From Deltaproteobacteria bacterium (GTDB lineage: Bacteria > Desulfobacterota > GWC2-55-46 > JAJCZF01): 64,000 nucleotides of DNA. The stretch lies in the NCBI GenBank assembly GCA_029262475.1, contig JAJCZG010000119.1, forward strand, positions 3,378 to 67,377, written 5' to 3'. How positions within the stretch are numbered: position 1 is the stretch's first letter; each line of letters starts with the position of its first letter. The notes beneath the pieces were generated by a model. The model worked only from the letters and a program-made list of their open reading frames with translations. It did not search any database and was not told the DNA's origin. Of this stretch, positions 22,106 to 54,675 are shown piece by piece. Position numbers and translations under genes: made by a program.

Positions 22106-22116
22106 GACAATTTAAA

Positions 22117-30350: not shown

Positions 30351-30364
30351 CGATTATCGAATAT

Positions 30365-34115: not shown

Positions 34116-34291
34116 CCACTTCGGCCCTTAAAACCCTCTAATTTTGCTTGCAAAAGAGGGTAAATAAAGCTATATTCAGAAGGTCCGGAGCCCTGCTTCG
34201 AAACCTTATCACAATCAACTTCAATCTTAAATATTCGCATACAATCTTTTTTTAGTCAATATATTTCACAGCCGGAGAAAGGGAGACACCG

Positions 34292-38220: not shown

Positions 38221-40443
38221 ATGCATGATTTAAAGACTGAAATAACCGCCTTTCTGACGGATGAGGCCACGAGGCCTGTCTCAATAAAGGAACTTATACG
38301 CGCCTTCGGCGTGCCGAGGGACGAGCGCGACGCCTTTAAGAGCTTCGTTAAGTCAATGGTCGCGGACGGCACGCTCATGAAGATACAGGGAGGCCGGTAC
38401 GGCCTCCCCTCGAAGATGAACCTCATAAACGGGACGATCACCTGTAACCCGTCCGGCTTCGGCTTCGTAATCCCGGACGAGGGTGGGGACGACTTATTTA
38501 TCGACAGGCGCCGCCTGAAGGGGGCGATGCACGGCGATAAGGTAGTCGCAAGGGTCGAGCGGTTGAAACGCGACGGAAAGAAAGAGGGTTCCATCATACG
38601 TATAACCGACCGCGCGGTAAAGAGCCTCGTTGGGCGGTTTACCAGGAGCAAAGGGTTTTCACTCGTCATCCCCTCAAATGAGCGCATACTCGACGATATC
38701 ATTATACCTCCCCGCATGGCCGGAGGCGCAAAGGACGGCCAGATAGTCGTAGCCGAGATCACACGATGGCCAGCCGAAAGACAGGCCCCGTCGGGAAAGG
38801 TAACCGAGATACTCGGTGACCCGGACGACCCGGATGTCGAGATAGAAGTTCTTGTCCGTAAGTTCAACCTCCCGCTCCTCTTCCCCACTGACGTTCAAAA
38901 GGCCGCCGAAGCCGTTCCGGATACCGTAAGCGAGGCCGAGATAAAAGGCAGAACAGACCTGAGGGGAAAGACCCTCGTCACCATAGACGGCGAGACGGCC
39001 AAAGACTTCGACGACGCTGTCGGGGTTAAGAAGGACGACGACGGCTTCACGCTCTATGTCTCCATAGCCGACGTCAGCCACTACGTTACCCCCGGCTCCG
39101 CGCTCGACACCGAGGCATACGAGCGTTCGACGAGCGTCTACTTCCCCGACCGATGCGTGCCGATGCTCCCGGAAAGGCTCTCTAACGGAATATGCAGCCT
39201 GAACCCCAAAGTGGACCGCCTCACCATGACGGCAGAGCTCTCTTTTAACTCATCGGGTGAAGTGACGAAGAGGAAATTCTACAAGAGCATTATAAGAAGT
39301 AAAGAGCGCCTCACCTACACCGTCGTAAACCATATTCTTAACGGTGACGAGCTTGCAACGAAACGCTACTCGAATGTCGCACGCGATATACTCCTCATGG
39401 GTGAGCTTGCTACACTCCTCGCCGAGGGGAGGAAGAGAGAGGGCTCCATAGACTTCGATCTCCCGGAGCCACAGATAATAATCGATATCGAAGGGCAGAT
39501 TGAGGATATCGTCCGCTCGGAGAGGAACGCGGCGCACCGGCTAATTGAAGAGTTCATGCTAGCGGCCAATAAGGCCGTGGCGCTCGAGTTCTCGCGCCCC
39601 GAGCTCCCCTTCATATACAGGATACACGCCGAGCCGAATGCCGAGAAGATTACGGATTTCATGGAGTTCATAGCGGCCTTCGGATGCGTTGGCCCTCCGA
39701 GGAGTAAAGGCCCCGGCGGGCTGCACAAGTATTTTCAGGCAGTGCTTAAGGATTTCGAGGATAAGCCCGCTGAGAGGCTCGTAAACCACGTCCTCCTGCG
39801 CTCGATGCAGAAGGCCGAGTACTCCGCATCGAATACCGGTCACTTCGGCCTGGCCTTTACGGACTACACTCACTTTACCTCTCCCATAAGACGCTATCCG
39901 GACTTAATCGTCCACAGGCTCCTCACCAAATTCCTCACCAAAAAATACGACTCTAAACTTCAAGAAGAGTACGCTGCCCGGCTGCCGGTGGTCGCAACAC
40001 ACACCTCGGCGATGGAGAGGCGCGCCATGGAGGCGGAGCGCGAGATAACGGACTTAAAGAAGGCCCAGTTCATGAAGGACAAGGTCGGTAACACCTACGA
40101 CGGCTTCGTCTCAGGCGTAACGGGTTTCGGGGTCTTTGTTGAGCTTACCGAGTACTTCGTGGAGGGGCTCGTGCATATTACGACGCTCCTTGACGACTAC
40201 TATATCTTTATGGAGAAGGAACACTACCTTATAGGCGAGAATACAAAACGCGTCTTCCGTGTTGGCGACCCGGTTAAGATAGTTATAAAAAGCGTTGACC
40301 TGGCGCTCAGAAGGATAGAGATGGCCCTCGCTGAGGAAAAAAAGCCCTCAAAGAAACCGGGAGAGAAGAAGAGAGCTAATGGTGGATATAAGAAAAAAGC
40401 CTCAGCAGATAGAAAACGCGGCGGCAAGGGCAAAAGAAGATGA
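38221..40443 (+). CDS. rnr: Ribonuclease R (RNase II/R family 3'-5' exoribonuclease) with a Lys-rich C-terminal tail
   Basis: The RNB domain is conserved across the central region (…DLRGKTLVTIDGETAKDFDDAVGV…YVSIADVSHYV…). An S1 domain and a C-terminal KKPSKKPGEKKRANGGYKKK tail follow. Confidence 0.9.
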   Translation: MHDLKTEITAFLTDEATRPVSIKELIRAFGVPRDERDAFKSFVKSMVADGTLMKIQGGRYGLPSKMNLINGTITCNPSGFGFVIPDEGGDDLFIDRRRLKGAMHGDKVVARVERLKRDGKKEGSIIRITDRAVKSLVGRFTRSKGFSLVIPSNERILDDIIIPPRMAGGAKDGQIVVAEITRWPAERQAPSGKVTEILGDPDDPDVEIEVLVRKFNLPLLFPTDVQKAAEAVPDTVSEAEIKGRTDLRGKTLVTIDGETAKDFDDAVGVKKDDDGFTLYVSIADVSHYVTPGSALDTEAYERSTSVYFPDRCVPMLPERLSNGICSLNPKVDRLTMTAELSFNSSGEVTKRKFYKSIIRSKERLTYTVVNHILNGDELATKRYSNVARDILLMGELATLLAEGRKREGSIDFDLPEPQIIIDIEGQIEDIVRSERNAAHRLIEEFMLAANKAVALEFSRPELPFIYRIHAEPNAEKITDFMEFIAAFGCVGPPRSKGPGGLHKYFQAVLKDFEDKPAERLVNHVLLRSMQKAEYSASNTGHFGLAFTDYTHFTSPIRRYPDLIVHRLLTKFLTKKYDSKLQEEYAARLPVVATHTSAMERRAMEAEREITDLKKAQFMKDKVGNTYDGFVSGVTGFGVFVELTEYFVEGLVHITTLLDDYYIFMEKEHYLIGENTKRVFRVGDPVKIVIKSVDLALRRIEMALAEEKKPSKKPGEKKRANGGYKKKASADRKRGGKGKRR

Positions 40444-42122
40444 ATGTCATTAAACTCCATATGGGGCTACGCAATATCAAGAGGCTCAGGTTTATTACCT
40501 CGACACTGGTAAAGCACGGCTTCTACCCCCTTCTTGACGCCATAGGACTAAGTAAACTCATAAAGGTCAGCGACAGGCTCAGCGGGGGCAAGCGTTATGA
40601 AAGCGAAGAGTACTCGCCTCAGGTTCGCCTAAGGCTCGCCTTCGAGGAGCTCGGGCCGACTTTCATAAAACTTGGGCAGATACTCTCGACCAGACCTGAT
40701 ATCATCCCCGAAGAGTTCATCTCGGAGCTGTTGAAGCTACAAGACGAGGTGCCGCGCCTTCCGTACGAAGAGATAAAAGAGGCGATAGAGACGGAGTTCA
40801 AAAGACCGGTAAGTGAGCTCTTTATATCCATCGACCGCGAGCCGATAGCCGCGGCAAGCATAGCGCAGGTGCACGGTGCAATAACGCCGGACGGAAAAAA
40901 GGCCGTTGTAAAGGTCAGAAGGCCCGGCATAGAGAGGATACTGGAGACGGATGTCTCCATCGTAAAATATCTCGCCTCGCTCATAGAACGCTACATTCCG
41001 GAGAGCCGCATCTACGACCCGACGGGGATTGCCGACGACTTCGCCATATTCATGAAGAAAGAGCTCGACTTTACGCTGGAAGCGAGCCACTCGGAAAAGT
41101 TCAGAAGTAACTTCAGAGACGACCCCTGCGTAAAGATACCGAAGGTATACTGGGAACTCTCTAGGAAGAGCGTGCTGACGATGGAGAGAATCGACGGCAC
41201 CAAGATCGACAACATCAAGGCCCTTAAAGAGAAGGGCATCGATACGGAGAAGACAGCGAGACTTCTGGCGGAGATATTTTTCAGACAAGTCTTTGAACAA
41301 AACCTCTTCCACGGAGACCTCCACTCCGGAAATATCTTCGTCATCAGTGAAAAGACACTTGGCTTCGTGGACTTCGGACTCGTCGGGTGGGTCGACAGGG
41401 AGATGCAGGATAACCTCGCCGATATACTGATAGGGCTAATAAAGGAGGATTTTGACGCCCTTACCAAGACCTACCTGAAGATGGGCATGCTGCCGGATGA
41501 TATCGACGTGGCCGAATTTAAACGCGAGCACACGGATATGCTCCAGCACTACCTTGGGCGCCCCTTCAAGGAGGTAAATATCGGCGACCTCTTCCTCGAC
41601 TACATAAAGCTTGCGAGCAGGCACAAGGTGAGGCTCCCGAGGGAGCTTATACTTCTCGATAAGTGCCTCCTTGAGCTCGAAGGGCTAATAAAGGTACTGC
41701 ATCCGGGCATGAACCTCATTCAGGAGGCCGAGCCGTACGCAAAGAAACTTGTAATGAGACGCCTTAACCCGGCCAGGTTTGCAAAAGAAGGTTTAGAGAC
41801 CTTCTCCGAGCTAACGGAGCTCTTAAAGGAGCTCCCGAGGCAGACTAACCTTATAATAAGAAAGCTTTTGACGGACAAGCTCACCTTTGAGATGAACCAC
41901 CGGGGGCTTGAAGAGCTTACGGGCGAGATAGACAGGGGCTCCAACAGGCTTACCTTCGCCCTTATACTCGCGGCCCTTATCGTTGGCTCTTCTCTCGTGA
42001 TTGCCTTTAAGGCCCCGCCGCTCGTCTACGGATACCCCCTCCTCGGCATCCTCGGCTTTGGCATCTCCGGCTTCCTTGGCGTCTGGCTCGCGTTCCTTAT
42101 ACTTAAATCAGGGAAGTACTGA
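40440..42122 (+). CDS. ubiB: ABC1/UbiB-family atypical kinase
   Basis: ...LGPTFIKLGQILSTRPDIIPEEFISEL..., ...EPIAAASIAQVH... and ...HGDLHSGNIF... are ABC1 kinase motifs. Two C-terminal transmembrane helices are present. Confidence 0.8.
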   Translation: MNVIKLHMGLRNIKRLRFITSTLVKHGFYPLLDAIGLSKLIKVSDRLSGGKRYESEEYSPQVRLRLAFEELGPTFIKLGQILSTRPDIIPEEFISELLKLQDEVPRLPYEEIKEAIETEFKRPVSELFISIDREPIAAASIAQVHGAITPDGKKAVVKVRRPGIERILETDVSIVKYLASLIERYIPESRIYDPTGIADDFAIFMKKELDFTLEASHSEKFRSNFRDDPCVKIPKVYWELSRKSVLTMERIDGTKIDNIKALKEKGIDTEKTARLLAEIFFRQVFEQNLFHGDLHSGNIFVISEKTLGFVDFGLVGWVDREMQDNLADILIGLIKEDFDALTKTYLKMGMLPDDIDVAEFKREHTDMLQHYLGRPFKEVNIGDLFLDYIKLASRHKVRLPRELILLDKCLLELEGLIKVLHPGMNLIQEAEPYAKKLVMRRLNPARFAKEGLETFSELTELLKELPRQTNLIIRKLLTDKLTFEMNHRGLEELTGEIDRGSNRLTFALILAALIVGSSLVIAFKAPPLVYGYPLLGILGFGISGFLGVWLAFLILKSGKY

Positions 42123-42245: not shown

Positions 42246-43166
42246 ATGAAGATACTTGAGAACGGAAAGATAACTTCCATCACCGGCTCGGTCGTAACAC
42301 TCGGGAACTTCGACGGACTCCACCTCGGGCACAGGCGGATACTTAAGAAGGTTATAAGGAGATCGGCTGAGCTAGGCCTTCCGTCTCTCCTCTATACCTT
42401 CGACCCGCACCCGCTGAAGGTAATACGCCCGGACAAAAGCCCGCAGCTCATTACGACGCGCGAAGACAAAGCCTCACTTATTGAAGCGGCTGGGATAGAG
42501 TACCTTGTATTTGCCCGCTTCACGGCAGATTTCGCCTCAAAGCACCCGCGAGAGTTCGCCGAAGAGGTATTAGCGGGCGAGCTCTCGGCCAGAGAGGTGA
42601 TAGTCGGCCACGACTACGCCTTCGGCAGAGAAAAGCGCGGCACCATAGAGCACCTAAAGGAGCTCGGCGAGAGCCTTGGTTTTACTGTATCTGTCGTAGA
42701 CGCCTACCGGAAAGGCGGGGGCGTGGTATCGAGCTCCAGAATACGGGAGCTTGTGGCAAGGGGCGCTCTAAGGGAGGCGGCGGGGCTCCTCGGGAGGGAT
42801 TTCACGCTTAGCGGGACGGTTATCAGAGGCAGTGACATTGGCGCTAAGATCGGCTTTCCGACCGCGAACATCGAGACCGGGAACGAACTGATACCGGCTA
42901 CCGGTGTATATGCTGTTTATGTTACAATCGAAGGGACTATGCACAGGGGTGTAGCCAATATTGGCATCTCGCCGACCTTTAAAGATAAAAAATTCACTAT
43001 AGAGGCCCATATATTTGGCTTTAATGGCGACATATATGGCAGTACCATTACCCTCTCCTTCATAAGGCGGCTTCGCGGAGAAAGGAAGTTCCGCTCCGTA
43101 GAGGCCCTTGTAGACAGGATAAGGTTTGATATAATACGCGCCGAAGCAATACTAGGAAAAAGATAA
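42246..43166 (+). CDS. ribF: Bifunctional riboflavin kinase / FMN adenylyltransferase
   Basis: TLGNFDGLHLGHRRIL (the FAD synthetase HxGH-like motif), with ...GFPTANI... and ...EAHIF.F.GD.YG... in the riboflavin kinase domain. Confidence 0.9.
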   Translation: MKILENGKITSITGSVVTLGNFDGLHLGHRRILKKVIRRSAELGLPSLLYTFDPHPLKVIRPDKSPQLITTREDKASLIEAAGIEYLVFARFTADFASKHPREFAEEVLAGELSAREVIVGHDYAFGREKRGTIEHLKELGESLGFTVSVVDAYRKGGGVVSSSRIRELVARGALREAAGLLGRDFTLSGTVIRGSDIGAKIGFPTANIETGNELIPATGVYAVYVTIEGTMHRGVANIGISPTFKDKKFTIEAHIFGFNGDIYGSTITLSFIRRLRGERKFRSVEALVDRIRFDIIRAEAILGKR

Positions 43167-43179
43167 GGAGTTTTTACAT

Positions 43180-44052
43180 ATGATCGACTCGGAGACAAAA
43201 GTGCTTGGAATATTCGGCGACCCGATAGGGCACACCCTTTCGCCGATTATACAGAATGCCGCTATAAAAGAGCTGGGGCTAAAGATGGTCTACGTCCCGT
43301 TCCACGTTACACCCGGTAACCTGAAAGACGCCGTCGCCTCAATAAAGGCCCTTGGCATGCCCGGGGTTAATATTACCATCCCGCATAAGGAACGCGTCAT
43401 GGAATTCCTGGACGCTACGACCGACGAAGCAAGGAAGATAGGCGCGGTAAATACTATCGTCAACCGGGACGGACACCTCACCGGTCACAATACCGACGGC
43501 GCAGGCTATATAACCAGCCTCAAGGCGGAGACGGGCTTTGAGTGCAGTGGTAAAAATATCGTCATCCTCGGAGCCGGGGGTGCTGCACGCGGGATAATGG
43601 CCGCTATACTGGCCGAAGCTCCCGCCTCCGTCACGCTGGTAAACAGGACAGTCGATAGGGCCGACTCTCTCGCCGAAGACCTGGGCTCGGAGTGCGCGGA
43701 GGTTAAGATCCATACCGTACCACTCGAAAAGGGACCGCTCCAGCCCCGTATCGAAGCTGCAGATCTACTTATAAACTCAACTAGCGTCGGCATGGGCGGC
43801 AAAGTCCCTTTTAACCCGCTTGTTCTCTCCCTTGATAAGCTGCCCTCGGAGGCGATAGTCTCTGATATAGTATATAAACCACTTAACACTGCGCTCCTGC
43901 GCTCTGCAAAGATGACGGGGCACACGGTACACAAGGGGCTCGGGATGCTTATACATCAGGGCGCTCTCGGCTTTGAACTGTGGACCGGGGAGAAGGCACC
44001 TGTGGAGACGATGCGCAAGGCCGCCTTAAAAGCCCTCGATATAACAGAATAA
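43180..44052 (+). CDS. aroE: Shikimate dehydrogenase
   Basis: ...LGIFGDPIGHTLSPIIQNAA... and ...VLGAGGAARG... are the AroE signature. Confidence 0.9.
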   Translation: MIDSETKVLGIFGDPIGHTLSPIIQNAAIKELGLKMVYVPFHVTPGNLKDAVASIKALGMPGVNITIPHKERVMEFLDATTDEARKIGAVNTIVNRDGHLTGHNTDGAGYITSLKAETGFECSGKNIVILGAGGAARGIMAAILAEAPASVTLVNRTVDRADSLAEDLGSECAEVKIHTVPLEKGPLQPRIEAADLLINSTSVGMGGKVPFNPLVLSLDKLPSEAIVSDIVYKPLNTALLRSAKMTGHTVHKGLGMLIHQGALGFELWTGEKAPVETMRKAALKALDITE

Positions 44053-44067
44053 CGGAAAAACGAAAAA

Positions 44068-44778
44068 ATGAAGATAATCTTTATAGGCGACGCGCACATT
44101 AATGGGCTCGGCGACCCGGGCATGGCACCACTGTGCTCCTTTATAGACTCTCTCTGGCCGATTAACACCCTCGTCATAATGGGCGATCTCTTCGACGTAT
44201 GGACCGGAACCAATAAGGTCACAATGCACGAGTACGGACCACTCTTACAAAGGCTCAGGGTCTTAAAATGCAAGGGGACGCGGATCATCTACCTCGAAGG
44301 CAACCACGACTTCTCCATGGGGCATTTCTTTACGGGAGACCTAATGGCAGATGTTTACCCGGAGAACCATACCCTTGAGATAGACGGCAAGAAGTTATAC
44401 CTCTCGCACGGAGACACCGTCCGCATGAGCGCTAGTGATAAACTCTGGCGCGCTTTTCTCAGGAGCGCCCTCTTTACTATCATCTCAAAACTCCTCGGAC
44501 CGAGGAAGGTCTGGCAGATAGCCAAAAAGCTCTCGAATAAGAGCCGCTACTACGGCGCAAAGAAAGAGGTAGAATCCGCAATAAAGGAGTTTGCAACGAA
44601 GAAACTTATGGACGGGTACGATGGGGTAGTATTCGGTCACTCGCACGTAGGCGGCGTCCTGGAAGAGGCCACAGGCCCCGGCACCGGCTTTTACGCCAAC
44701 CCCGGCGGGTGGGTAAACGAGAGGAGCTATCTAATCTACGAAGAGGGTAAGCTTAGAATGGAAAAGTTCGACGGCTAG
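44068..44778 (+). CDS. lpxH: UDP-2,3-diacylglucosamine diphosphatase (LpxH family metallophosphoesterase)
   Basis: IFIGDAHI..., ...IMGDLFDVWTG..., ...LEGNHDF..., ...SHGDTV... and ...FGHSHV... are collinear with the E. coli LpxH motifs. Confidence 0.7.
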   Translation: MKIIFIGDAHINGLGDPGMAPLCSFIDSLWPINTLVIMGDLFDVWTGTNKVTMHEYGPLLQRLRVLKCKGTRIIYLEGNHDFSMGHFFTGDLMADVYPENHTLEIDGKKLYLSHGDTVRMSASDKLWRAFLRSALFTIISKLLGPRKVWQIAKKLSNKSRYYGAKKEVESAIKEFATKKLMDGYDGVVFGHSHVGGVLEEATGPGTGFYANPGGWVNERSYLIYEEGKLRMEKFDG

Positions 44779-45737
44779 TCGGTCTTCCGAGGCTCCGGTG
44801 GCTCGAAAATTTCGTCTGCTTCGTCTTCACCGGCACCGGACTCGATAACCCGTGTACCGGCTAGCGTATCTCCGATACGGGTCGAGTCGCTCGCCTTATA
44901 GAGCAGCGATGCCTCGTAGGCGACTACGGCAAGGGCCACCACAAAGACGATTAATTTCCCGAAGTACGGTATCCATCCGAGCAGGTAGAATGCCGCCACC
45001 AGTATCCCGAAGATAGAATTTCTAAGAATCGAATCCCTGAAGTCGCACGCTTCTTTGACCATTATTGTGCTCACGACCCTTAGCCCGCCTGCTGCCCTCT
45101 TACCGGGGCTTCCCCCGCTTATGCCGTCTGCCAGGCAAATATAGGCTACCGCCGCTACGGGGCCAACAACTCCCGGCACCTGATAGAGGATGGCGGCGAT
45201 GAGAAAGTCTATAAGTTTAGCGGAGAAACGCTTTGTTACGCGCCTTATGAGCTCCTCCGGGGCTTCAAGGTTTCCCGTATCCCCCGGGTCCGGTTCTTCT
45301 TCCGCGTCACCCGGGTCGGGAGTTGTCTCTTCTGCTTCGCTATCGTCACCTGAAGCACCGGCTTCGTTCTCTTCAGTTGAACTTCCGCCGTAGAGTGAGA
45401 GGATATCGTGTGGCACGCCACCCTCTTCGGCGCACGATTCATCACCGGCGACGTCAGGGTCGCTACTGCTGCCCGCGCCTCTGGATTCCGGCGAAGAAGC
45501 TTGCTCTTCCTCGGGCTCTTCTTTCACGAGAATATCATATTCGGTATCTGAAAAGTCTACTGGTATTTCGTGAGGTGGGGTTATATCGTCAAGAGGATGG
45601 TAGACCCCGGAGTGGCCGCCGGTCTCACTGTCACCGGGCAGTGCGCCTCCTCTCACCTCGCCGGAGGCGGGTTTTTTAGAGGGGGTCTCTACCTCTTTAG
45701 TAGGATCTTGTTTTTCTTTTTCGCCGGAGATAGTCAC
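44775..45737 (-). CDS. RDD-family membrane protein with a ~130-aa acidic, disordered N-terminal region
   Basis: The C-terminal half has transmembrane helices and RDD-like ...LGWIPYFG... The ORF track starts at 45839, but that frame overlaps the upstream DUF4177 gene. The GTG at 45737 overlaps the DUF4177 stop (TAGTG), which suggests coupled translation from there. Confidence 0.55.
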   Translation of the reverse strand: MTISGEKEKQDPTKEVETPSKKPASGEVRGGALPGDSETGGHSGVYHPLDDITPPHEIPVDFSDTEYDILVKEEPEEEQASSPESRGAGSSSDPDVAGDESCAEEGGVPHDILSLYGGSSTEENEAGASGDDSEAEETTPDPGDAEEEPDPGDTGNLEAPEELIRRVTKRFSAKLIDFLIAAILYQVPGVVGPVAAVAYICLADGISGGSPGKRAAGGLRVVSTIMVKEACDFRDSILRNSIFGILVAAFYLLGWIPYFGKLIVFVVALAVVAYEASLLYKASDSTRIGDTLAGTRVIESGAGEDEADEIFEPPEPRKTD

Positions 45738-45922
45738 TAGCCGCCGTCTTCTTCGCCGTTTCTTGTAAAGATGATAAAGGCCATGGATGGACGCTTTGAG
45801 GAGTCCCTCATGGCGAAGGTCATACCATCGTAGGTCCATCCCTCGCGTACCCGGGTATTAATGGCCCGCTCGATATCCTCGTCGGTTACGGTGCTGAGCT
45901 CTACTACTTTATATTCTATCAT
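45737..45922 (-). CDS. DUF4177-family small protein
   Basis: A 61-aa protein. MIEYKVVEL......REGWTYDGM...FIIFTR has the DUF4177 pattern. It is paired with an RDD protein. Confidence 0.5.
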   Translation of the reverse strand: MIEYKVVELSTVTDEDIERAINTRVREGWTYDGMTFAMRDSSKRPSMAFIIFTRNGEEDGG

Positions 45923-45983: not shown

Positions 45984-46901
45984 CTAGTCCTTCTTATCTT
46001 CCTCGACACTGCTCTGCCATATGGCCCTGCCAACGAAGAAGGGTCCCATCTCTTCAATATAGGTCGAGGTCTGCTTTGTGGAACGCATCCTCTGAACGAG
46101 CGCTGAGAGAGGGAAGAGTTCCTTCCCGATAAGACCTATCACGAAGTCGTTGTCATTTTGATCGAGCCCGTTACTGATAAGCCTTATGTCGCGCCCCAGA
46201 CCCTCACTGCCGAAAGCGCGGCCAATCATGCCGTGCTCCATAAGTATCTCGCCCTGCTCTCTTGGCGGGAGCATTGCAAAAGAGCCTTTTCTCCTAAGCG
46301 GATACCAGACGGCCCACTTCATCTCCGGGTCCATTGTAACCCTGGGGGTACGGTCTATTAGCCAGTCCTTCAGGTTCTGCTCGTGTCCGATGGCGTATGT
46401 GCGGCCAAGCATGGTATACTCGTGCCTTTGCGTAAGGTTTTGGAAAGATGCCTTCTTAAGAAAACGCCTGAGATCGTTTACAAAGAAATCAGGGTCCTCG
46501 CTCATGGTGAGGAGTCCGATTCCGTTTGGATTATTTATGTCGCGGTAGAGCACCGATCCAAAGTTGGCATCTTCTTTAAGTTCATTAACAAGCACACTGG
46601 TATTCGGCGAATTGTCGAATACCAGGAGCTGGACGAATATCCTTCTGTCGAGCACTTGGCGCTTGCCGTCTATAGGGGCACCCTTCTCACTTAAATCTAC
46701 GGAGATATTCTGACCCGCACTACCCGGCCCGCCGGGAATGCCTGCGGGGTGTCCACCGCCCGGTTTAGCCCCAGGTCCACCAGGAATTCCCGCAGGATGT
46801 CCGCCGCCGGTTTTAGGTATTCCCGCGGGGTGTCCGCCGCCAGGTTTAGCGCCGGTTTTAGGTATCCCTGCCGGGTGTCCGCCTTCTTTCTTATCTGTCA
46901 T
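45984..46901 (-). CDS. Chlorite-dismutase-family protein, HemQ-like (coproheme decarboxylase-like), with an N-terminal Gly/His/Pro repeat extension
   Basis: WYPLRRKGSFAMLPPREQGEILMEHGMIGRAFG...FVIGLIGKELFPLSALVQRMRSTKQTSTYIEEMGPFFVGRAI is collinear with Bacillus HemQ [38 protein letters not shown]...FGEFGSFFVGTRL. The N-terminus carries 4 x GGHPAGIP(K/G)xG. Confidence 0.75.
   Translation of the reverse strand: MTDKKEGGHPAGIPKTGAKPGGGHPAGIPKTGGGHPAGIPGGPGAKPGGGHPAGIPGGPGSAGQNISVDLSEKGAPIDGKRQVLDRRIFVQLLVFDNSPNTSVLVNELKEDANFGSVLYRDINNPNGIGLLTMSEDPDFFVNDLRRFLKKASFQNLTQRHEYTMLGRTYAIGHEQNLKDWLIDRTPRVTMDPEMKWAVWYPLRRKGSFAMLPPREQGEILMEHGMIGRAFGSEGLGRDIRLISNGLDQNDNDFVIGLIGKELFPLSALVQRMRSTKQTSTYIEEMGPFFVGRAIWQSSVEEDKKD
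46738..46870 (-). repeat. Imperfect tandem ~33-nt coding repeats (4 units) that encode GGHPAGIPKTG-type repeats at the HemQ-like N-terminus
   Basis: DNA units of the form ggtattcccgcggggtgtccgccgccaggtttagc are visibly reiterated. On the plus strand they appear as the spurious Pro/Gly ORF 46738..46953. Confidence 0.7.
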
Positions 46902-46918
46902 TATCCTTCTCCAGCAAT

Positions 46919-48199
46919 CTAGCCTTTTCCGGCCAGCCGCTTTGCCTTCTTAGCTTCATTTGCCGCTTTAGCGACGTCACTCGGCTGATAGGTACAGAAC
47001 GGCTCTTCATCCATATAGTTTTCAGTGAACGCATAGGCCCTAGCCCTGCATCCGCCGCACGAACTCTTATATTCGCAGTAACCGCACCTGCCGTTATAGT
47101 CGTCCCAGGCGCGCATCTCTTTAAAGACACTCGATGTCTGCCAGATCTTACTAAACGGTTCCTCCCTTATGTCGCCGCAAGGGACGTCAAGGAAGCCGCA
47201 TATCTGTACCACTCCCCTGTGGCCGACGAAGGCAAAGGATTGTCCGCCCATACAGCCCTTGCTCATGGCGTCCAGGCCGTGGGTCTGGGGAGTTACTTTT
47301 ATGCCCTTCTCCTTCTCCTTCTGTCTAAATATTCTATAGTAGTGAGGAGCGCAGGTGGGTTTAAACTGGATCGGAGACTTGTCGCGCATCTCGTAGAACC
47401 AGGTAAGTGTCTTTTCGTAATCCTCGGGGCTTATCTCCTGATCCTTCAGGTTAGCGCCCCTTCCGGTTGGCACGAGGAGGAAGGGGTGATAGGCCTTTGC
47501 GCCGAGCTTTACCACGAGGTCCAGAAGCTCCGGAAGCTCGTGGAGGTTGTGCTTGGTAATGGTGGTATTGACCTGGAAATCAAGGCCGACCTTGTTGGCG
47601 TTATCGATTGCCTTCATGACACTTGCGTAAGCGCCCTTTACGCGCCTGAAATTATCGTGGCTCTCTTCGGTAAGACCGTCGATGGAAAAGCTTACCCTCT
47701 GGATGCCTACGTCTATCATCCTCTGAGCCGTCTCCTCGGTTACGAGGAAGCCGCAAGGGGCCATGACCATCCTCAGCCCGAGATCGGTGCCCCTCTGGGC
47801 GATATCCCAGATGTCGTCGCGGAGCATCGGCTCGCCGCCGGTCATAATCATGATGGGCTTGGCAAAGGAAGCAACATCCTCCATAAAGGTCATACACTCT
47901 TCAGTGTTAAGCTCGTTCGGGTACGGTCCGAAGCGCGCAGCGGCCCGGCAGTGAACGCAGTCGAGGTTACAGCTACGTGTGAGCTCCCAGGCAATAAGCC
48001 TCGGCGTCCAAATCTTTTCTCCCGGCTTCTCACCGGGTCTTCCGCCCGGATGGGCCATCGGGTCGCCCGTGCCGGGATGATTTACCGGATGGTCGCCCGG
48101 ATCTCCTGCTCTCTCTTCCATATCTTCTCCGGCGCCAGGATGGCCGCCCTCTATCATCGGGCCGCTACCTGGGTGCCCAGTTGGTGTATTTCCACTCAT
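46919..48199 (-). CDS. ahbD: Radical SAM / SPASM protein of the NirJ / AhbC-AhbD family (alternative heme biosynthesis), with a His-Pro-Gly-rich N-terminal extension
   Basis: SCNLDCVHC is the CxxxCxxC motif. The C-terminal twitch/SPASM cysteines are ...GRCGYCEYKSSCGGCRARAY... The N-terminal 55 aa read MSGNTPTGHPGSGPMIEGGHPGAGEDM...GDHPVNHPGTGDPMAHPGGRPGEKPGEK. The gene sits in the hem operon. Confidence 0.65.
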   Translation of the reverse strand: MSGNTPTGHPGSGPMIEGGHPGAGEDMEERAGDPGDHPVNHPGTGDPMAHPGGRPGEKPGEKIWTPRLIAWELTRSCNLDCVHCRAAARFGPYPNELNTEECMTFMEDVASFAKPIMIMTGGEPMLRDDIWDIAQRGTDLGLRMVMAPCGFLVTEETAQRMIDVGIQRVSFSIDGLTEESHDNFRRVKGAYASVMKAIDNANKVGLDFQVNTTITKHNLHELPELLDLVVKLGAKAYHPFLLVPTGRGANLKDQEISPEDYEKTLTWFYEMRDKSPIQFKPTCAPHYYRIFRQKEKEKGIKVTPQTHGLDAMSKGCMGGQSFAFVGHRGVVQICGFLDVPCGDIREEPFSKIWQTSSVFKEMRAWDDYNGRCGYCEYKSSCGGCRARAYAFTENYMDEEPFCTYQPSDVAKAANEAKKAKRLAGKG

Positions 48200-48281
48200 A
48201 ATCGTTTCTCCTTAGAAAATAGTTCGTGAAGCACTTGCCCGAAGCCCCGGCCTCTTCAAGAGACGCCTTACCAAAAAGGCT

Positions 48282-49253
48282 CTAGCCAAGCAATTTTGCC
48301 GCTTCCTTTGCGAAATAAGTAATTACGAGATCTGCGCCGGCGCGCTTGATGCCCATAAGGGATTCCATCATAACGCGGTCGCCGTCGATCCAGCCCTTTT
48401 CAGCCGCAGCCTTGACCATTGAAAACTCGCCGCTTACGTTGTACGCCGCTACCGGGTAGCGTGTTTCATCCTTGATTCTTCTAATTATATCGAGATAAGG
48501 GAGCGCGGGTTTTACCATAATAATATCCGCGCCCTCGGAGATATCAAGCAACACTTCCCTTATTGCCTCGTCGGAGTTAGGTGCGTCCATCTGGTAGGTG
48601 CGCCTGTCGCCGAACTCCGGCACAGACTCCGCCGCGTCGCGAAACGGCCCGTAGAAGGCGCTTGCGTACTTGGCCGCATAACTCATGATCGGAATATTTT
48701 GGAAGCCGTTCTCGTCGAGCATCGACCTTATCGCCCCGACACGCCCGTCCATCATATCCGACGGGGCCACCATATCGGCTCCGGCTTCAGCGTGCGAGAG
48801 CGCTTCGGCAGCGAGGAGCGTAAGGGTCGAATCGTTATCGACATCGCCATTTTTTATGATACCACAGTGCCCATGTGAAGTATACTCGCACATACAGACA
48901 TCGGTCACTACGACCATCTCCGGAATGGCCGCCTTTATTGCTCTTACAGAGCGTTGTACAGGCCCATCGGGGTCGAATGCGCTCGAACCTGTCTCGTCCT
49001 TCTCCTCGGGTATGCCGAATAGAATTACAGACGGTATGCCGAGCGACCACGCCTCCTCGGCGTCCTTTACGATATTCTCTACGGATAACTGGTAGTGGCC
49101 CGGCATGGAAGCTATCGGGTTCCTTACCCCCTCGCCGTATATGGCGAATAACGGGAGAATAAAATCGTTTGGAGTAAGCACCGTCTCGCTAAGCATCCTC
49201 CTTAGTGTCGGCGTCCCCCTGAGCCTTCTTAAACGTGTAACCGGGAAATCCAT
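48282..49253 (-). CDS. hemB: Porphobilinogen synthase (delta-aminolevulinate dehydratase)
   Basis: ...RRLRGTPTLRRM... and the metal-site region ...DVCMCEYTSHGHCG... are HemB signatures. Confidence 0.95.
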   Translation of the reverse strand: MDFPVTRLRRLRGTPTLRRMLSETVLTPNDFILPLFAIYGEGVRNPIASMPGHYQLSVENIVKDAEEAWSLGIPSVILFGIPEEKDETGSSAFDPDGPVQRSVRAIKAAIPEMVVVTDVCMCEYTSHGHCGIIKNGDVDNDSTLTLLAAEALSHAEAGADMVAPSDMMDGRVGAIRSMLDENGFQNIPIMSYAAKYASAFYGPFRDAAESVPEFGDRRTYQMDAPNSDEAIREVLLDISEGADIIMVKPALPYLDIIRRIKDETRYPVAAYNVSGEFSMVKAAAEKGWIDGDRVMMESLMGIKRAGADLVITYFAKEAAKLLG

Positions 49254-49255
49254 CT

Positions 49256-50818
49256 CTAAACTTCCTTTCTCATCTCGTCAGTTGAGTAAAAGCGTTCCAT
49301 CTCTTCGGTAAGACCGTCGATGGTATAATTTTTTGGCATGATATCCACAGTAATGCCGAACTCTCTGGCCGTATCTGCCGTAACCGGCCCTATGCAGGCG
49401 ACTTTAGTCCCTTTAAGTATCTCTTTAAGGCTCCTCTTGCCGATGATGCTAACGAAGTTCTTAACCGTACTCGATGAAGTAAATGTCACGACGTCGATAC
49501 CTCCGGCGAGGAACTCTTCCTTTATCTCACTAGCCCGCTTCCTGGGAGCAATAGTTCTGTAGGCATCTACTACGTCAATCTTGCCGCCGTGCTTTTTAAT
49601 CTCTACGGGGATTACATCCCTTGCAACGGCAGCGCGCGGGAGGAGAAATTTCTTTCCCTTTATCCCCTCCTTGGAGAGCGCGTCTATAACCGCTTCGGCG
49701 ATAAACTCCCTCGGCGTCAGGTCAACGCCTATATTTTCGTCCAGTACGGCCCGGGCCGTCATCGGCCCTATGGCGCATATCTTAACGCCCTTTAGCTCCC
49801 TTACGTCTAAGCCAAGCTTCGTTAGCCTCGAAAAGAAATGCTTAACACCGTTAACGCTCGTAAAGAGAATCCAGTCGTATGTTGAAAGGCGTTTTATCAC
49901 TCTATCGAGCCCATTGAAGCTCTCCGGGTCCGTTATCTTTATCGTCGGGAAGCTTACCGGGGCCGCCCCCCGCTCCGATAAAATCTTTAAAAAACTCCCG
50001 GCCTGCTCAAGGGTTCTCGTAACGAGCACGCGCCTTCCGAAGAGCGGTTTCGACTCGAACCAGTTAAGGCGCTCCCGTAGTCTTACTACGCTTCCGATAA
50101 CGATCATCACCGGGGTCTGGACCTTTGCCTTTGTAGCAAGTGTAGCTATCGACTCTACCGGGCCGGTAATCGTCTGCTGCGCGCTGGTGGTGCCGTCGCG
50201 AACGAGCGCTACGGGCGTATCCGGGGCCATGCCGCCGCTCATGAGCTTATCGGCAATTAACTTCAGGTTCCTCCGCCCCATGAGGATAACTATCGTCTCC
50301 GAGGCCGTAGCAAGCGCGCTCCACTCCTCGTCTGTCCTTTTATTTACCGCCCCCCTGTGCCCCGATATTACCGTAACCGAAGAGGAATAGTCCCTGTGTG
50401 TAAGGGATATTCCGGCGTATGCCGGGGCCGCCACGACACTCGTCACGCCGGGGATGACCTCGAAGTCTATGCCGTCGGCTGTGAGCCGTTCGCACTCTTC
50501 AGCGCCCCTGCCGAAGAGGAACGGGTCTCCACCCTTCAGGCGAAGGACAATTTTTCCTTGCCGTGCCTTCCTGGAGAGGAGCTTACTGATTTCAATCTGG
50601 TTTGCGCTCTCGTCGCCGCCGTTCTTGCCGACAAATATCAGCTCGGTGTCTTTGCGGGCGTATTCGAGCAGTTCGTTATTAGCCAGGAGATCGTAGACGA
50701 TACAGTCGGCTCTCTTTAGTGCCTCGACCGCCTTCACCGTAACGAGCCCCGGGTCTCCCGGGCCCGCGCCGGTAATATAAACCTTGCCGGTCTTTTTCTT
50801 GAGAGTCTTCGGCGGCAC
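49256..50818 (-). CDS. cobA: Fused uroporphyrinogen-III C-methyltransferase / uroporphyrinogen-III synthase (CobA-HemD)
   Basis: The N-terminal VYITGAGPGDPGLVTVKAVEALKRADCIVYD is the SUMT motif. The C-terminal ~250 aa are HemD-like. Total length is 520 aa. Confidence 0.9.
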   Translation of the reverse strand: MPPKTLKKKTGKVYITGAGPGDPGLVTVKAVEALKRADCIVYDLLANNELLEYARKDTELIFVGKNGGDESANQIEISKLLSRKARQGKIVLRLKGGDPFLFGRGAEECERLTADGIDFEVIPGVTSVVAAPAYAGISLTHRDYSSSVTVISGHRGAVNKRTDEEWSALATASETIVILMGRRNLKLIADKLMSGGMAPDTPVALVRDGTTSAQQTITGPVESIATLATKAKVQTPVMIVIGSVVRLRERLNWFESKPLFGRRVLVTRTLEQAGSFLKILSERGAAPVSFPTIKITDPESFNGLDRVIKRLSTYDWILFTSVNGVKHFFSRLTKLGLDVRELKGVKICAIGPMTARAVLDENIGVDLTPREFIAEAVIDALSKEGIKGKKFLLPRAAVARDVIPVEIKKHGGKIDVVDAYRTIAPRKRASEIKEEFLAGGIDVVTFTSSSTVKNFVSIIGKRSLKEILKGTKVACIGPVTADTAREFGITVDIMPKNYTIDGLTEEMERFYSTDEMRKEV

Positions 50819-50821
50819 CCT

Positions 50822-51763
50822 CTACTCCGAGGCCGGCTCTACGTCGTAGAGCTCCTTCAGTATCTCGTAGGCTCCGTCTTTAAGAAGCTTCTCCGCAAGG
50901 CATATACCGAGAGGTTCGGCCTCACTGACCTTGCCAGTAACTTTATCCTTAATTATCCTCTCGCCATCGGTGCTGGCGACCAAACCTCTAAGGGTTAGCG
51001 AGTCTCTGTCTACCGTGGCGAATGCGGCTATCGGCACCTGACACCCGCCCTCTAACCTCCTTAGGAGCGCACGTTCTGCCGTGACAGCGGCGTCAGTATC
51101 GGGGTGGTTAAAGAAGGCCGCCATCTCGTTAGTTTCGTCGTCGCCAATGCGCGTCTCTATGCCGAGTGCGCCCTGGCCTATAGCCGGGAGCATCACCTCG
51201 GGGTCGAAGTATTCCGTAATGGATTCACCCCAACCGAGCCTCCTAAGACCTGCTCCGGCGAGGACTATCGCGTCGTAGACACCTTCCTTAGCCTTACGGA
51301 GGCGCGTGTCGATATTCCCGCGTAAATCTTCAATCTTTATATCCGGCCTGAGCGCCAGTATCTGCGACTTCCGCCTGAGGCTTGACGTCCCTATGACCGC
51401 GCCCTGCGGGAGCTCTTTAAAAGACTTATAATCTCTCGATATTAACGCGTCCCTCGGGTCTTCCCTCTCAGTCGTGAAGGCGAGCTTTAAGCCCTCGGGG
51501 AAGAAGGTCGGCACGTCCTTCATGGAGTGGACCGCAAGGTGCGCTTCGTTTGCCAGGAGGGCTTCTTCTATCTCCTTGGTAAAGAGCCCCTTGCCGCCAA
51601 CTTGAGCGAGAGGTACGTCGGTAATTTTATCGCCCGTCGTCTTTATCTTATTTAGTTCGACTTCGACCCCGGGGTATCTCTTTAGTAACTCCGAACGAAC
51701 CCACTCGGCCTGCCAGAGCGCGAGCTGGCTGCCGCGCGTAGCTATAATAATCTTTTTACTCAA
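50822..51763 (-). CDS. hemC: Hydroxymethylbilane synthase (porphobilinogen deaminase)
   Basis: IIIATRGSQLALWQAEWV... and ...HSMKDVP... are HemC signatures. Confidence 0.95.
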   Translation of the reverse strand: MSKKIIIATRGSQLALWQAEWVRSELLKRYPGVEVELNKIKTTGDKITDVPLAQVGGKGLFTKEIEEALLANEAHLAVHSMKDVPTFFPEGLKLAFTTEREDPRDALISRDYKSFKELPQGAVIGTSSLRRKSQILALRPDIKIEDLRGNIDTRLRKAKEGVYDAIVLAGAGLRRLGWGESITEYFDPEVMLPAIGQGALGIETRIGDDETNEMAAFFNHPDTDAAVTAERALLRRLEGGCQVPIAAFATVDRDSLTLRGLVASTDGERIIKDKVTGKVSEAEPLGICLAEKLLKDGAYEILKELYDVEPASE

Positions 51764-51842
51764 TCTCTTGCCGCCTTCCTTGGTTTAATAGTCCGCCGGA
51801 AGCTACTACAAGCTCCGGTGGGCCGCCCGTTGATAAAAACCC

Positions 51843-53150
51843 TTAATCCTCAGAGTTCTGGGCCTTCTTCTGTTTATCCAATTCTTCGCTGAGGTCAAAT
51901 AGTTTCCTCGAAGCCTCGATATAGAAATCCCCGTCCACTGTGTCGGCCTCGCGCTTAAGGTGCTGCACGGGGTTATGGAGTATCTTCTTTATGATAGCCA
52001 CCGTCATGGCGTCTATCGTTTCTCGCTGCTTGTCGGTAAGGTCGTCGTTCATCATGGAGAATGCTTTTTGCATCTCGCTTTTTCTTATATCGTTAAAGCT
52101 ATTTTTTAGCGCGATGATAGTCGGAACGACGTTAAGGGACTTGACCCACTGATAGAATACATCTATCTCCTCGTCGATTATCGTCTCGGCCTCGCCTGCC
52201 TCCTTGGAGCGTTCCTTAAGGTTTGCGTTAACGACATTTTCAAGGTCGTCAACGTCGTAGACGTACGAGCCGTCAACGTTATTAACGAGCGGGTCGATAT
52301 TTCTCGGCACGGAGATATCTATAAAGAACATCGGGGCGTATTTTCTCTCACGCATTACCTCGCGCACCATCTCGGGCTTTATGATAAATTTAGGTGAGGC
52401 GGTCGAAGCCACTACGATATCGACCTCTTTAAGGAAGTGCGGAAACTCGCGAAGCATTATCGCCGTACCGTTAAAAGTCCGCGATAACTCGACCGCGCGC
52501 TCGTAGGTACGGTTGGTGATCATTATTTCTCGTACGCCGGCGTTAAGGAAGTGACGGGCCGCAAGCTCGGCCATCTCACCCGCGCCGATGAGCATGACGG
52601 TCTTCCCGGTGATGTCGCCGAATATCTTCTTGCCTAACTCAACAGCCGCAAAACTTATGGATACCGCCGCGGCCCCTATCCTCGTCTCGGTCCTTATCCT
52701 CTTTGCAACGGAAAAGGTCTTGTGATAGAGCTTATTTAGTACCACTCCGGCGGTATCGAAGTGAACGGCGTTACCGTAGGCGTCCTTTACCTGTCCGAGT
52801 ATCTGCGGCTCTCCGACGACCATGGAGTCGAGCCCTGCGGCCACCCTGAATAGGTGTCTTACGGCGTCTTGACCCTTGTGGACATAGAGGTGCTCGTCTA
52901 GCTCCTCAAGCGGGATCTTGCTGGACTCGGCGAGAAAACGTTTCACCTCCCAGACACCCTTCTCGATATCGCTTGAGACAGCTGAGATCTCGACCCTGTT
53001 ACAGGTAGAGAGTATGACGCACTCGTTAACGCCGTATGAGCCGCAAAGAGCCTTTAAGGAGTCTCCGAGGATTTCATCGGAGTAGGATAGCTTTTCCCTG
53101 ATCTCAACCGTTGCCGATTTATGGTTAAGTCCGACTATTACAAGGTTCAT
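51843..53150 (-). CDS. hemA: Glutamyl-tRNA reductase
   Basis: MNLVIVGLNHKSATVEIRE... has the STCNRVE catalytic Cys motif (…ILSTCNRVEI…), and ...GAGEMAE... is the NADPH-binding region. Confidence 0.95.
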   Translation of the reverse strand: MNLVIVGLNHKSATVEIREKLSYSDEILGDSLKALCGSYGVNECVILSTCNRVEISAVSSDIEKGVWEVKRFLAESSKIPLEELDEHLYVHKGQDAVRHLFRVAAGLDSMVVGEPQILGQVKDAYGNAVHFDTAGVVLNKLYHKTFSVAKRIRTETRIGAAAVSISFAAVELGKKIFGDITGKTVMLIGAGEMAELAARHFLNAGVREIMITNRTYERAVELSRTFNGTAIMLREFPHFLKEVDIVVASTASPKFIIKPEMVREVMRERKYAPMFFIDISVPRNIDPLVNNVDGSYVYDVDDLENVVNANLKERSKEAGEAETIIDEEIDVFYQWVKSLNVVPTIIALKNSFNDIRKSEMQKAFSMMNDDLTDKQRETIDAMTVAIIKKILHNPVQHLKREADTVDGDFYIEASRKLFDLSEELDKQKKAQNSED

Positions 53151-53183
53151 CTAAAAAAAATCCTTTTAAAAAAGACGTAACGT

Positions 53184-54002
53184 TTACCTGAGGAGCCCGT
53201 GAGCCCCACCCGCAAGTATATTAATAATAAAGTACGAGCATATCATCACGCAAAACGCGGCAGTTGACAAAAGCGCCGCCTTTCTCCCCCGCCACCCGAC
53301 TGTAAGCCTGCCGTGGAGGAGAGCCGCGTAGAGGAGCCACTCAATTAGCGAAAAGATCTGGCGGTGCTTCCACTCCCAGTAGTTTCCGGTTGCGTATTCA
53401 CTCCATATCGCGCCGGTTATCATCGCGAGCGTAAGGAGCGTAAACCCGTAGCTTATGCATCTGTATCCAACCTCATCGAGCACCTCTAGTGACGGGAGGA
53501 GAAAATATGTCCCGCCAAGCTTTCGGCTCTTAAGGTAGTGGTTCTGTATCAAATACATAAGCGCAAAGAAGAAGGCCAGCGCAAAGCTCGCATTACCGAG
53601 AAACGCGAGAAGTATATGAAACGGCAGCCAGTAGCTCTCTAGCACCGGCGCAAGAGGCACGATCTCCTTTGGCATAAACGACGCCGTTAAAATAAGCATC
53701 AGCGAAAACGGCGCAACGAACGCCCCCAGGACCGAAAGCCTGTACTTATAGAGGATCACGAAGTAGAGCCCCACCGTGACCCAGGCAAAGAGTATGAGCG
53801 ACTCGTGAAAGCTCGCTGCAGGCGTCCTCCCTGCCTCCATCCAGCGTCCGAGTATCGTTATCGTATTCACCGAGAATGCGCCTATAAGGGCGTACTTCCC
53901 GAAGTCGAGAAGCCTTTCGCGGTGGGTGGTCAGATACCCGAAGTACAAGACCGTCGATACTATATAGACAGCTACCGTTATGTAGAAAAAGATTAAACTC
54001 AT
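53184..54002 (-). CDS. ccsA: Cytochrome c assembly protein CcsA/HemX-like (ResC family)
   Basis: A polytopic protein with ...WLPFHILLAFLGNASFALA... and the ...WSEYATGNYWEWKHRQIFSLIEW... Trp-rich region. The chosen start is the internal ATG at 54002, which avoids a 50-nt overlap with the upstream gene. Confidence 0.7.
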   Translation of the reverse strand: MSLIFFYITVAVYIVSTVLYFGYLTTHRERLLDFGKYALIGAFSVNTITILGRWMEAGRTPAASFHESLILFAWVTVGLYFVILYKYRLSVLGAFVAPFSLMLILTASFMPKEIVPLAPVLESYWLPFHILLAFLGNASFALAFFFALMYLIQNHYLKSRKLGGTYFLLPSLEVLDEVGYRCISYGFTLLTLAMITGAIWSEYATGNYWEWKHRQIFSLIEWLLYAALLHGRLTVGWRGRKAALLSTAAFCVMICSYFIINILAGGAHGLLR

Positions 54003-54006
54003 CTGG

Positions 54007-54675
54007 TTATTTCTTCCAATCGACCCCGAGGCCGGATACGGTGAAACCCTCCCCAAAAAGTCCTTTAAGGAGGCCGTTTACCTTATCCTCCGCCCCGTGA
54101 CGGATCCACCCGAGTGCAGTGGGGGTGAGTAGAGAGTCGTATAATCTTTTCAGTTTAACCTCTTTCTGCTTATCTTTCAATAACTTAATGCGTACTGCCC
54201 CGGCAACTTCCAGGAGCCTTGAGTACTCGGGCCCTATCTCGCCTTCGAGTTCTTCTCTTATATGTTTAGCCAGGTACGGGCTCTTTCCCGAGGTCGATAC
54301 GGCTATCTTAAGCGGGCCGCGCTCTATTACAGAGGGGACCAGAAAGTCGCATCCCTCCGGGTCGTCGGCGATATTTACCGGCATCCCGGCGGCCTTGGCA
54401 ATACCGGCGACCCTCTGATTTACGCTCCTCGTAGAGGAGGCTGCGAATACGAGGAAAGCCCCGTCCATATCATCGGCGGAGAAACGTTTTTGCCTGTGGC
54501 TAATACGTCCCCCGGCGAGAAGCTCCGTAAGCCCCGGCGTAAGCCTCGGGCTTACGACCGTTACCGAAGCCCCGCAACCAACAAGGGAGCGGACCTTTCT
54601 CTCGGCCACCTTCCCGCCACCAACTACGAGGCACGGTCTGCCGTCGACTTCGAAGAAGAGCGGGTAGTAGGACAT
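54007..54675 (-). CDS. sirC: Precorrin-2 dehydrogenase / sirohydrochlorin ferrochelatase (siroheme synthase N-terminal module, SirC/Met8-like)
   Basis: FFEVDGRPCLVVGGGKVAERKVRSLVGCGASVTVVSP is the Rossmann NAD site, followed by ...VNIADDPEGCDFLVPSVIERGPLKIAVSTSGKSP... Confidence 0.85.
   Translation of the reverse strand: MSYYPLFFEVDGRPCLVVGGGKVAERKVRSLVGCGASVTVVSPRLTPGLTELLAGGRISHRQKRFSADDMDGAFLVFAASSTRSVNQRVAGIAKAAGMPVNIADDPEGCDFLVPSVIERGPLKIAVSTSGKSPYLAKHIREELEGEIGPEYSRLLEVAGAVRIKLLKDKQKEVKLKRLYDSLLTPTALGWIRHGAEDKVNGLLKGLFGEGFTVSGLGVDWKK

Follow-up and report, generated by a model that had tools for sequence, protein, structure and literature searches.

The last step of the coproporphyrin-dependent (CPD) heme pathway is performed by AhbD in some organisms and by the coproheme decarboxylase ChdC, also called HemQ, in others (PMC7242693), and AhbD has been found in CPD organisms that carry no other Ahb genes (PMC13564367). 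Both types of enzyme are present in the archaeon Haloferax volcanii, which has nirDL/GH, ahbC and ahbD, lacks PgoX and CpfC, and grows poorly under anaerobic conditions alone when ahbD is deleted and under aerobic conditions when the ChdC-type gene pitA is deleted (PMC5746218). Here we analyze a 64-kb stretch of a contig from a Deltaproteobacteria bacterium (JAJCZG010000119.1; the whole stretch is called the window below), in which a single tetrapyrrole operon ends in two adjacent genes, one for an AhbD and one for a ChdC-type protein of the chlorite dismutase (Cld) family. We favor the reading that one precursor-trunk operon is joined here to a pair of alternative enzymes for the coproheme-to-heme step, and that the coproheme probably comes from a CPD pathway encoded elsewhere.

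The interval 45984-54675 contains eight co-directional minus-strand open reading frames (ORFs) with intergenic gaps of no more than 82 nt (Table 1). Their identities, assigned with Pfam and NCBIfam profile hidden Markov models, agree with the gene list and coordinates that an earlier note had drawn up from the sequence. The penultimate gene encodes a radical S-adenosylmethionine (SAM)/SPASM protein that passes the AhbD model TIGR04545, albeit by a small margin, over its full length (model positions 1-339), at 510.8 bits against a cutoff of 500. The same protein reaches 185 bits with the AhbC model TIGR04546, for which the cutoff is 650, and scores of 326, 190 and 183 bits with NirJ2, NirJ and NirJ1, each under the cutoff of its model. 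It matches PF04055 and PF13186, carries the radical SAM CX3CX2C motif as CNLDCVHC and has a C-terminal SPASM cysteine cluster. Because the AhbD equivalog model is the only one passed, we identify the gene as ahbD, whose product is predicted to convert coproheme to heme b independently of oxygen. A pass of TIGR04545, the CX3CX2C motif and the SPASM auxiliary-cluster cysteines are likewise features of AhbD from Desulfovibrio vulgaris and Methanosarcina barkeri; our search of the PDB found no AhbD structure.

The earlier note had offered two readings of this gene pair, the first of which made the radical SAM gene ahbC and let the HemQ-like protein take the place of AhbD. It built on the presence of only one NirJ-like radical SAM gene in the window, a count borne out by our tblastn search with AhbD, but the AhbC model falls far below its cutoff where the AhbD model is passed over its full length, and homologues of this AhbD adjoin hemY in coproporphyrin-pathway loci of Chloroflexota. 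The model scores refute this first reading, to which we give almost no credence.

The final gene of the operon encodes a protein with the Cld/ChdC-type dimeric alpha+beta barrel subunit fold, composed of two ferredoxin-like halves. Whereas the earlier note described it as aligning closely with HemQ, its resemblance to characterized proteins is distant: the Pfam match is confined to the C-terminal half (54.7 bits), curated HemQ models give about 34 bits, the top PDB sequence matches lie near 30 bits, and structure-based identity to ChdCs is 14-21%. Every PDB sequence match within the Cld/ChdC family is nevertheless a ChdC and none a true Cld (three further weak matches are unrelated and due to chance), and Clds rank below every ChdC in the structure comparison. 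In a HMMER alignment with the Listeria enzyme (LmChdC), Y200-P-L-R-R204 falls on Y147-P-M-S-K151, which contains the catalytic Tyr and the propionate-binding Lys, and His223 falls on the proximal His174. Across 67 homologues, Tyr200, the Pro and Leu that follow it, and Arg204 do not vary, nor does His223 (67/67), so that both the catalytic Tyr and the proximal His of HemQ are retained. The ChdC motif is reportedly Y-P-[MF]-x-[KR]; the third position is Leu here as opposed to Met or Phe. On the strand that follows the proximal-His helix, the invariant Arg240 aligns with LmChdC Gln187 (HMMER), a position that we take to be that of the catalytic Arg in chlorite dismutases, and Asp238, two residues earlier, is invariant as well. 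Strand register suggests that Arg240 may point into the distal pocket, and the invariant Asp238-x-Arg240 may constitute a peroxide-activating, DyP-like acid/base pair.

These two residues are also the starting point for a different view of the protein, according to which it is no decarboxylase at all and instead carries coproheme or heme, or regulates, together with AhbD, or else detoxifies peroxide or chlorite as a heme enzyme that uses Asp238-x-Arg240. An invariant Arg at the catalytic position of Cld, with an invariant Asp on the same strand, would suit such a function, and the His/Pro repeat tails and PCP_red fusions described below suggest tetrapyrrole or metal binding; moreover, an archaeal ChdC homologue with an intact motif was reportedly inactive. 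Set against this, the protein resembles ChdC more than Cld or DyP in both fold and sequence, its catalytic Tyr is invariant along with the basic residue four positions later, the window holds no perchlorate or chlorate reduction genes, and relatives of the protein occupy the hemQ slot of Chloroflexota CPD operons, four of which have no AhbD within the DNA examined. We therefore consider a role other than decarboxylation improbable.

The ChdC-type family is both large and tight, with more than 6,400 matches, the best 120 of which all score at least 310 bits, yet E <=1e-30 is attained by only 89 clusters at 50% identity. Among GTDB species representatives its hosts are metagenome-assembled genomes (MAGs) of Thermodesulfobacteriota/'Deltaproteobacteria' together with Nitrospinota, Acidobacteriota, Chloroflexota, Phycisphaerae and Elusimicrobia. 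We clustered the neighboring ORFs of 80 loci and checked the clusters by tblastn. About 20 Thermodesulfobacteriota loci keep the order seen in the window, (sirC-ccsA-hemA-hemC-)cobA/hemD-hemB-ahbD-[ChdC-type gene], and the closed 2.75 Mb genome CP129479.1 (GCA_030583865.1; locus L097, 338600-359403) shares both the operon and its flanks (metallophosphoesterase, aroE, ribF, ubiB, rnr, Dabb, tal). In six Chloroflexota loci the ChdC-type gene instead sits within a CPD gene set, ([cobA]-sirC-)hemA-hemC-hemD-hemB-[ChdC-type gene]-hemE-hemH-hemY-hemL. AhbD is encoded nearby in two of the six; in the other four the ChdC-type gene is the sole candidate for the terminal enzyme within up to 10 kb on each side, less where contigs end. 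The window protein shares 55-58% identity with the Chloroflexota members and 56-67% with those of its own synteny group. Because the former are about as close to it as the more distant of the latter, we treat all of them as one putatively isofunctional orthologous family in the hemQ slot.

The Chloroflexota operons also bear on which route supplies coproheme. Some of them are headed by sirC, and in one case (L064) by cobA too. Because both genes head CPD operons there, they are not diagnostic of the siroheme route; they point to the siroheme/B12 branch and not to a particular way of making heme. The earlier note had taken the sirC/cobA/radical SAM context to indicate heme made through siroheme and had titled the locus an Ahb (siroheme-dependent) operon, and neither statement finds support here. 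Consistent with what that note did observe for ahbA and ahbB, the 64-kb window contains no ahbA, ahbB or ahbC (ORFs scanned with Pfam; tblastn with AhbD). About 20 syntenic relatives, CP129479.1 among them, show no second NirJ-type radical SAM gene that could be AhbC in the 10 kb around the gene (tblastn), and neither ahbA nor ahbB is among the annotated recurrent neighbor clusters of the syntenic loci, in which no direct search for these two genes was made. Besides one AhbD-type gene in the window and in each syntenic Thermodesulfobacteriota locus, the only further tblastn match is weak, comes from an acidobacterial locus (L054) and is no AhbD.

Operons of the type hemE-hemH-hemY, by comparison, are widespread in MAGs of Thermodesulfobacteriota/Deltaproteobacteria (L083, L084, L086, L087, L089, L092, L094, L098-L107), and many Thermodesulfobacteriota are thus not siroheme-route organisms. 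All eight ferrochelatase contigs that we inspected carry hemE-hemH-hemY, except L091, which has hemE-hemH only. One MAG, JBHHXU01, contains both hemE-hemH-hemY (L084) and a ChdC-type gene (L012). We therefore consider it probable that the organism obtains coproheme from a hemE-hemH-hemY coproporphyrin pathway encoded elsewhere in its genome, and not from AhbABC. Several of the hemE-hemH-hemY operons in the phylum adjoin multihaem cytochrome c7-type genes.

A bacterial counterpart of the Haloferax arrangement would resolve the same gene content differently. Siroheme would be converted to coproheme by AhbA/B and AhbC encoded elsewhere, and heme would be completed by AhbD under anoxic conditions or by the ChdC-type protein with oxidants. 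This is possible, though on the whole unlikely. Its experimental precedent is H. volcanii itself, without PgoX and CpfC (PMC5746218), and it would account for the occurrence of cobA-hemD, sirC and ahbD in one operon, for a hemB-ahbD adjacency like that which we take to be present in the Desulfovibrio ahb cluster, and for a window devoid of hemE, hemH and hemY. The empty searches for ahbA, ahbB and ahbC, within the scopes given above, argue against it, as do the ChdC-type orthologues in coproporphyrin-pathway operons that also hold sirC or cobA, and the frequency of hemE-hemH-hemY among Thermodesulfobacteriota MAGs.

A trunk operon with two finishing enzymes fed by the CPD pathway remains the reading that we prefer, and several observations weigh against it. 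By tblastn, the 64-kb window holds no hemE, hemH, hemY or hemL, and the absence of the first three, which are also missing from the surroundings of the gene in about 20 syntenic relatives, is unfavorable; nor, among the best 120 ferrochelatase matches, could hemE, hemH and hemY be traced to a MAG that belongs to the hemB-ahbD-chdC synteny group. The ChdC-type gene of JBHHXU01 is not beside ahbD and lies outside the ahbD synteny group. The operon contains siroheme-precursor genes (the cobA-hemD fusion and sirC), and both this fusion and the adjacency of hemB and ahbD are, as we understand its layout, also found in Desulfovibrio, which reportedly uses the siroheme route. As for the protein, it scores 34.4 bits with NF042928 (cutoff 235) and 34.6 bits with NF008913 (cutoff 253), curated HemQ models that span the actinobacterial and firmicute subfamilies only. 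We know of no assayed member of its clade, which we tentatively take to be clade 4. Finally, Arg240 aligns with the presumed position of the distal catalytic Arg of Cld, a residue that ChdCs are described as not having (PMC7611857).

From the gene identities, the fold, the conserved residues and the contexts in relatives, we infer the activities of the two enzymes, their division between oxic and anoxic conditions and the upstream route as follows. One transcription unit would encode the common trunk from glutamyl-tRNA to uroporphyrinogen III through HemA, HemB, HemC and HemD, with HemL encoded elsewhere, and the same unit would provide CobA and SirC as branch-point enzymes toward siroheme and B12. 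The steps from uroporphyrinogen III to coproheme have no genes in the window and would most likely be supplied by hemE-hemH-hemY elsewhere. Two unrelated enzymes would then perform the same last step, the decarboxylation of two propionates of Fe-coproporphyrin III (coproheme) to yield heme b. AhbD, as a radical SAM/SPASM enzyme, would act without oxygen, and the second enzyme, which we place in a diderm-type ChdC/HemQ clade, would rely on an oxidant (H2O2 or some other), on a radical at Tyr200 and on coproheme ligated by His223, by analogy with characterized ChdCs. Possession of both would allow an anaerobe or microaerophile to finish heme with or without oxidants. This corresponds to the second reading in the earlier note, of redundant anaerobic and oxidative finishing enzymes, which gains support from the AhbD model match and from the conservation of the proximal His and catalytic Tyr.

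Both terminal enzymes carry unusual N-termini. The window ChdC-type protein begins with four GGHPAGIP repeats, which lie outside the catalytic fold and have a comparable counterpart in some homologues only, and the window AhbD begins with a GHPG-rich tail of about 60 residues. A His/Gly/Pro-rich tail is present in all syntenic Thermodesulfobacteriota AhbDs that we examined with an intact N-terminus, and in none of the Chloroflexota AhbDs. In locus L004, a 61-nt repeat occurs at the 5' end of both ahbD and the ChdC-type gene, its two copies being 72% identical (8494-8554 and 10003-10063), which suggests a module common to the two neighboring genes. A parallel is offered by PitA, whose His-rich linker binds Co2+ (PMC5746218). 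We speculate that the tails could bind heme or metal. Other family members bear different N-terminal modules: PF08369 PCP_red (P0100, P0104, P0110, P0117), aldo/keto reductase (P0128, P0140) and Clp_N (P0122). PCP_red takes its name from a protochlorophyllide reductase subunit, in which it is the C-terminal domain. Two long low-complexity homologues (P0154, P0156) look eukaryotic, and an apparent radical SAM-Cld fusion (P0251, 609 aa) was dropped as Rosetta-stone evidence, being a high-GC frameshift artefact without real similarity to AhbD.

A more far-reaching idea, which we regard as rather unlikely, is that the pair forms a dedicated two-enzyme module, in which a ChdC clade yet to be assayed, with a DyP-like distal Asp-x-Arg, would work with AhbD while homologous His-Pro tails take up coproheme, heme or metal, or else attach to a partner that both enzymes share, the whole possibly being fed with siroheme-derived coproheme through AhbABC. 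If siroheme-fed, such a module would be the first siroheme-to-ChdC hybrid known from bacteria, and it would represent a living intermediate between two pathways, those through siroheme and through coproporphyrin.

Table 1. Positions of the operon genes, parts of their products and other features in the 64-kb window.
Feature	Coordinates	Strand	Evidence
sirC, siroheme synthase N-terminal domain homologue (precorrin-2 dehydrogenase, possibly also ferrochelatase)	54007..54675	-	Pfam NAD_binding_7 and Sirohm_synth_M; TIGR01470, 169 bits (cutoff 62)
ccsA/CcsB-like membrane protein, in hemX position upstream of hemA	53184..54056	-	PF01578; TIGR03144, 198 bits (cutoff 187.6)
hemA, glutamyl-tRNA reductase	51843..53150	-	TIGR01035, 478 bits
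hemC, hydroxymethylbilane synthase	50822..51763	-	TIGR00212, 373 bits
cobA-hemD fusion, uroporphyrinogen-III C-methyltransferase and uroporphyrinogen-III synthase	49256..50818	-	PF00590, residues 12-224; PF02602, residues 279-505
hemB, porphobilinogen synthase	48282..49253	-	PF00490, 512 bits; NF006762, 520 bits
ahbD, radical SAM/SPASM heme b synthase (predicted activity)	46919..48199	-	TIGR04545, 510.8 bits (cutoff 500), residues 68-406
GHPG-rich N-terminal tail of AhbD	48020..48199	-	
ChdC-type protein (Cld family), putative oxidant-dependent coproheme decarboxylase; core residues ~66-305	45984..46901	-	Pfam Chlor_dismutase
N-terminal tail of ChdC-type protein, residues 1-65	46707..46901	-	Translation; DNA repeat families 46735-46898
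Asp238-Ile-Arg240 of ChdC-type protein	46179..46187	-	
DUF4177-like ORF, 61 aa, directly downstream of ChdC-type gene	45737..45922	-	Pfam DUF4177, 20 bits, below cutoff
RDD-family membrane protein	44775..45736	-	Weak RDD match; PF06271 on CP129479.1 orthologue
ribF (FAD synthetase/riboflavin kinase), aroE, metallophosphoesterase, ubiB-like kinase, RNase R	42246..44778 and 38221..42122	+	Syntenic in ~17 loci
tRNA-Leu	34039..34125	-	
TPP riboswitch	30254..30358	-	75 bits
thiH-like radical SAM gene	28766..30151		
Low-GC (0.44) gap	21406..23123		
tRNA-Thr	22031..22105	-	
Thioredoxin/DsbA-like gene	17827..18606		
Two adjacent ~700-aa ORFs	13537..15636 and 15654..17759	+	No significant Pfam match

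The boundaries of the operon call for some comment. The ccsA/CcsB-like gene probably starts some 18 codons past the TTG to which its coordinates refer; the orthologue in CP129479.1 is called at 272 aa. Downstream of the ChdC-type gene, the short DUF4177-like ORF could be part of the operon or lie outside it; a gene is called at its position in L001 and in CP129479.1. The RDD-family gene that follows on the same strand is kept downstream in 9 loci and is a candidate for a link to heme. The pair of DUF4177-like and RDD genes lies 3' of the ChdC-type gene in 9 related loci and in CP129479.1. Promoter and terminator scans of the locus gave no informative signal.

Converging on the operon from the other side are ribF, aroE, and genes for a metallophosphoesterase, a ubiB-like kinase and RNase R. 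ChdC has been reported to be able to use FMN; the proximity of ribF is nonetheless probably lineage synteny and not a functional linkage through FMN supply. Farther away in the window, a TPP riboswitch precedes a thiH-like radical SAM gene; thiG, a gene for TMP synthase and thiC come next, and lgt lies interspersed. A thioredoxin/DsbA-like gene comes after two adjacent long ORFs, and one of the two tRNA genes listed in Table 1, that for tRNA-Thr, lies in a low-GC gap.

Compared with known ChdC/HemQ proteins from Listeria, Staphylococcus, Geobacillus, Corynebacterium and Streptomyces (PDB 5LOQ, 1T0T/5T2K, 6XUB, 9MIQ), from which the low identity given above was calculated, the clade of the window protein differs in that the distal Gln of Firmicutes ChdC is replaced by an invariant Asp-x-Arg, many members have an additional N-terminal part of varying kind (HP repeats, PCP_red, AKR), and the hosts are diderm and largely anaerobic, here with ahbD in the same operon. 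Chlorite dismutases proper (NdCld, 3NN1; AoCld, 2VXH) belong to the same superfamily, and it is their catalytic distal Arg position to which Arg240 is aligned. HemQ in diderm bacteria is on record for Acidobacteria, Planctomycetes and Deinococcus-Thermus (PMC5095920), and ChdC clades that include diderms have been described (PMC7611857). The window ahbD resembles that of Desulfovibrio in its adjacency to hemB, again on our understanding of the Desulfovibrio layout, and differs from ahbD of D. vulgaris and M. barkeri in lacking a flanking ahbA or ahbC and in encoding the additional N-terminal tail.

The locus is of practical use for annotation. A family of this size, which goes by the bare label 'chlorite dismutase family protein' and which the curated HemQ models miss, can be read as a diderm-type coproheme decarboxylase, and sirC or cobA beside hemA should not be counted as evidence for the siroheme route. 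The Asp-x-Arg pair and the His/Pro tails may bear on how strict or facultative anaerobes complete heme at trace levels of oxidant. If the reading that we prefer is true, the locus adds one more case in which AhbD and a ChdC-type enzyme serve as alternatives for closing heme synthesis, encoded side by side in an uncultured, presumably anaerobic Thermodesulfobacteriota lineage, with little conceptual gain.

Both versions of the hybrid, CPD-fed and siroheme-fed, have already been described, and the backup arrangement itself is known. What is mildly new is the adjacency of ahbD and the ChdC-type gene at the end of a trunk operon across an uncultured lineage of Thermodesulfobacteriota, together with the His/Pro/Gly tails, the other N-terminal add-ons and the invariant Asp-x-Arg. 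The dual system of H. volcanii resembles the present one in that a single organism has two coproheme decarboxylases as alternatives for the terminal step and in that the ChdC domain bears a flexible, His-rich segment (PMC5746218); it differs in being archaeal, with dispersed genes, a PitA that is a ChdC-ABM fusion and a siroheme route shown by gene content, whereas here the two genes are adjacent and the upstream route is putative. The CPD organisms in which AhbD replaces or accompanies ChdC share with the window an oxygen-independent terminal AhbD without other Ahb genes nearby (PMC7242693, PMC13564367), but those have been described mainly in Gram-positives, whereas here ahbD and chdC are neighbors within the trunk operon of uncultured Thermodesulfobacteriota.

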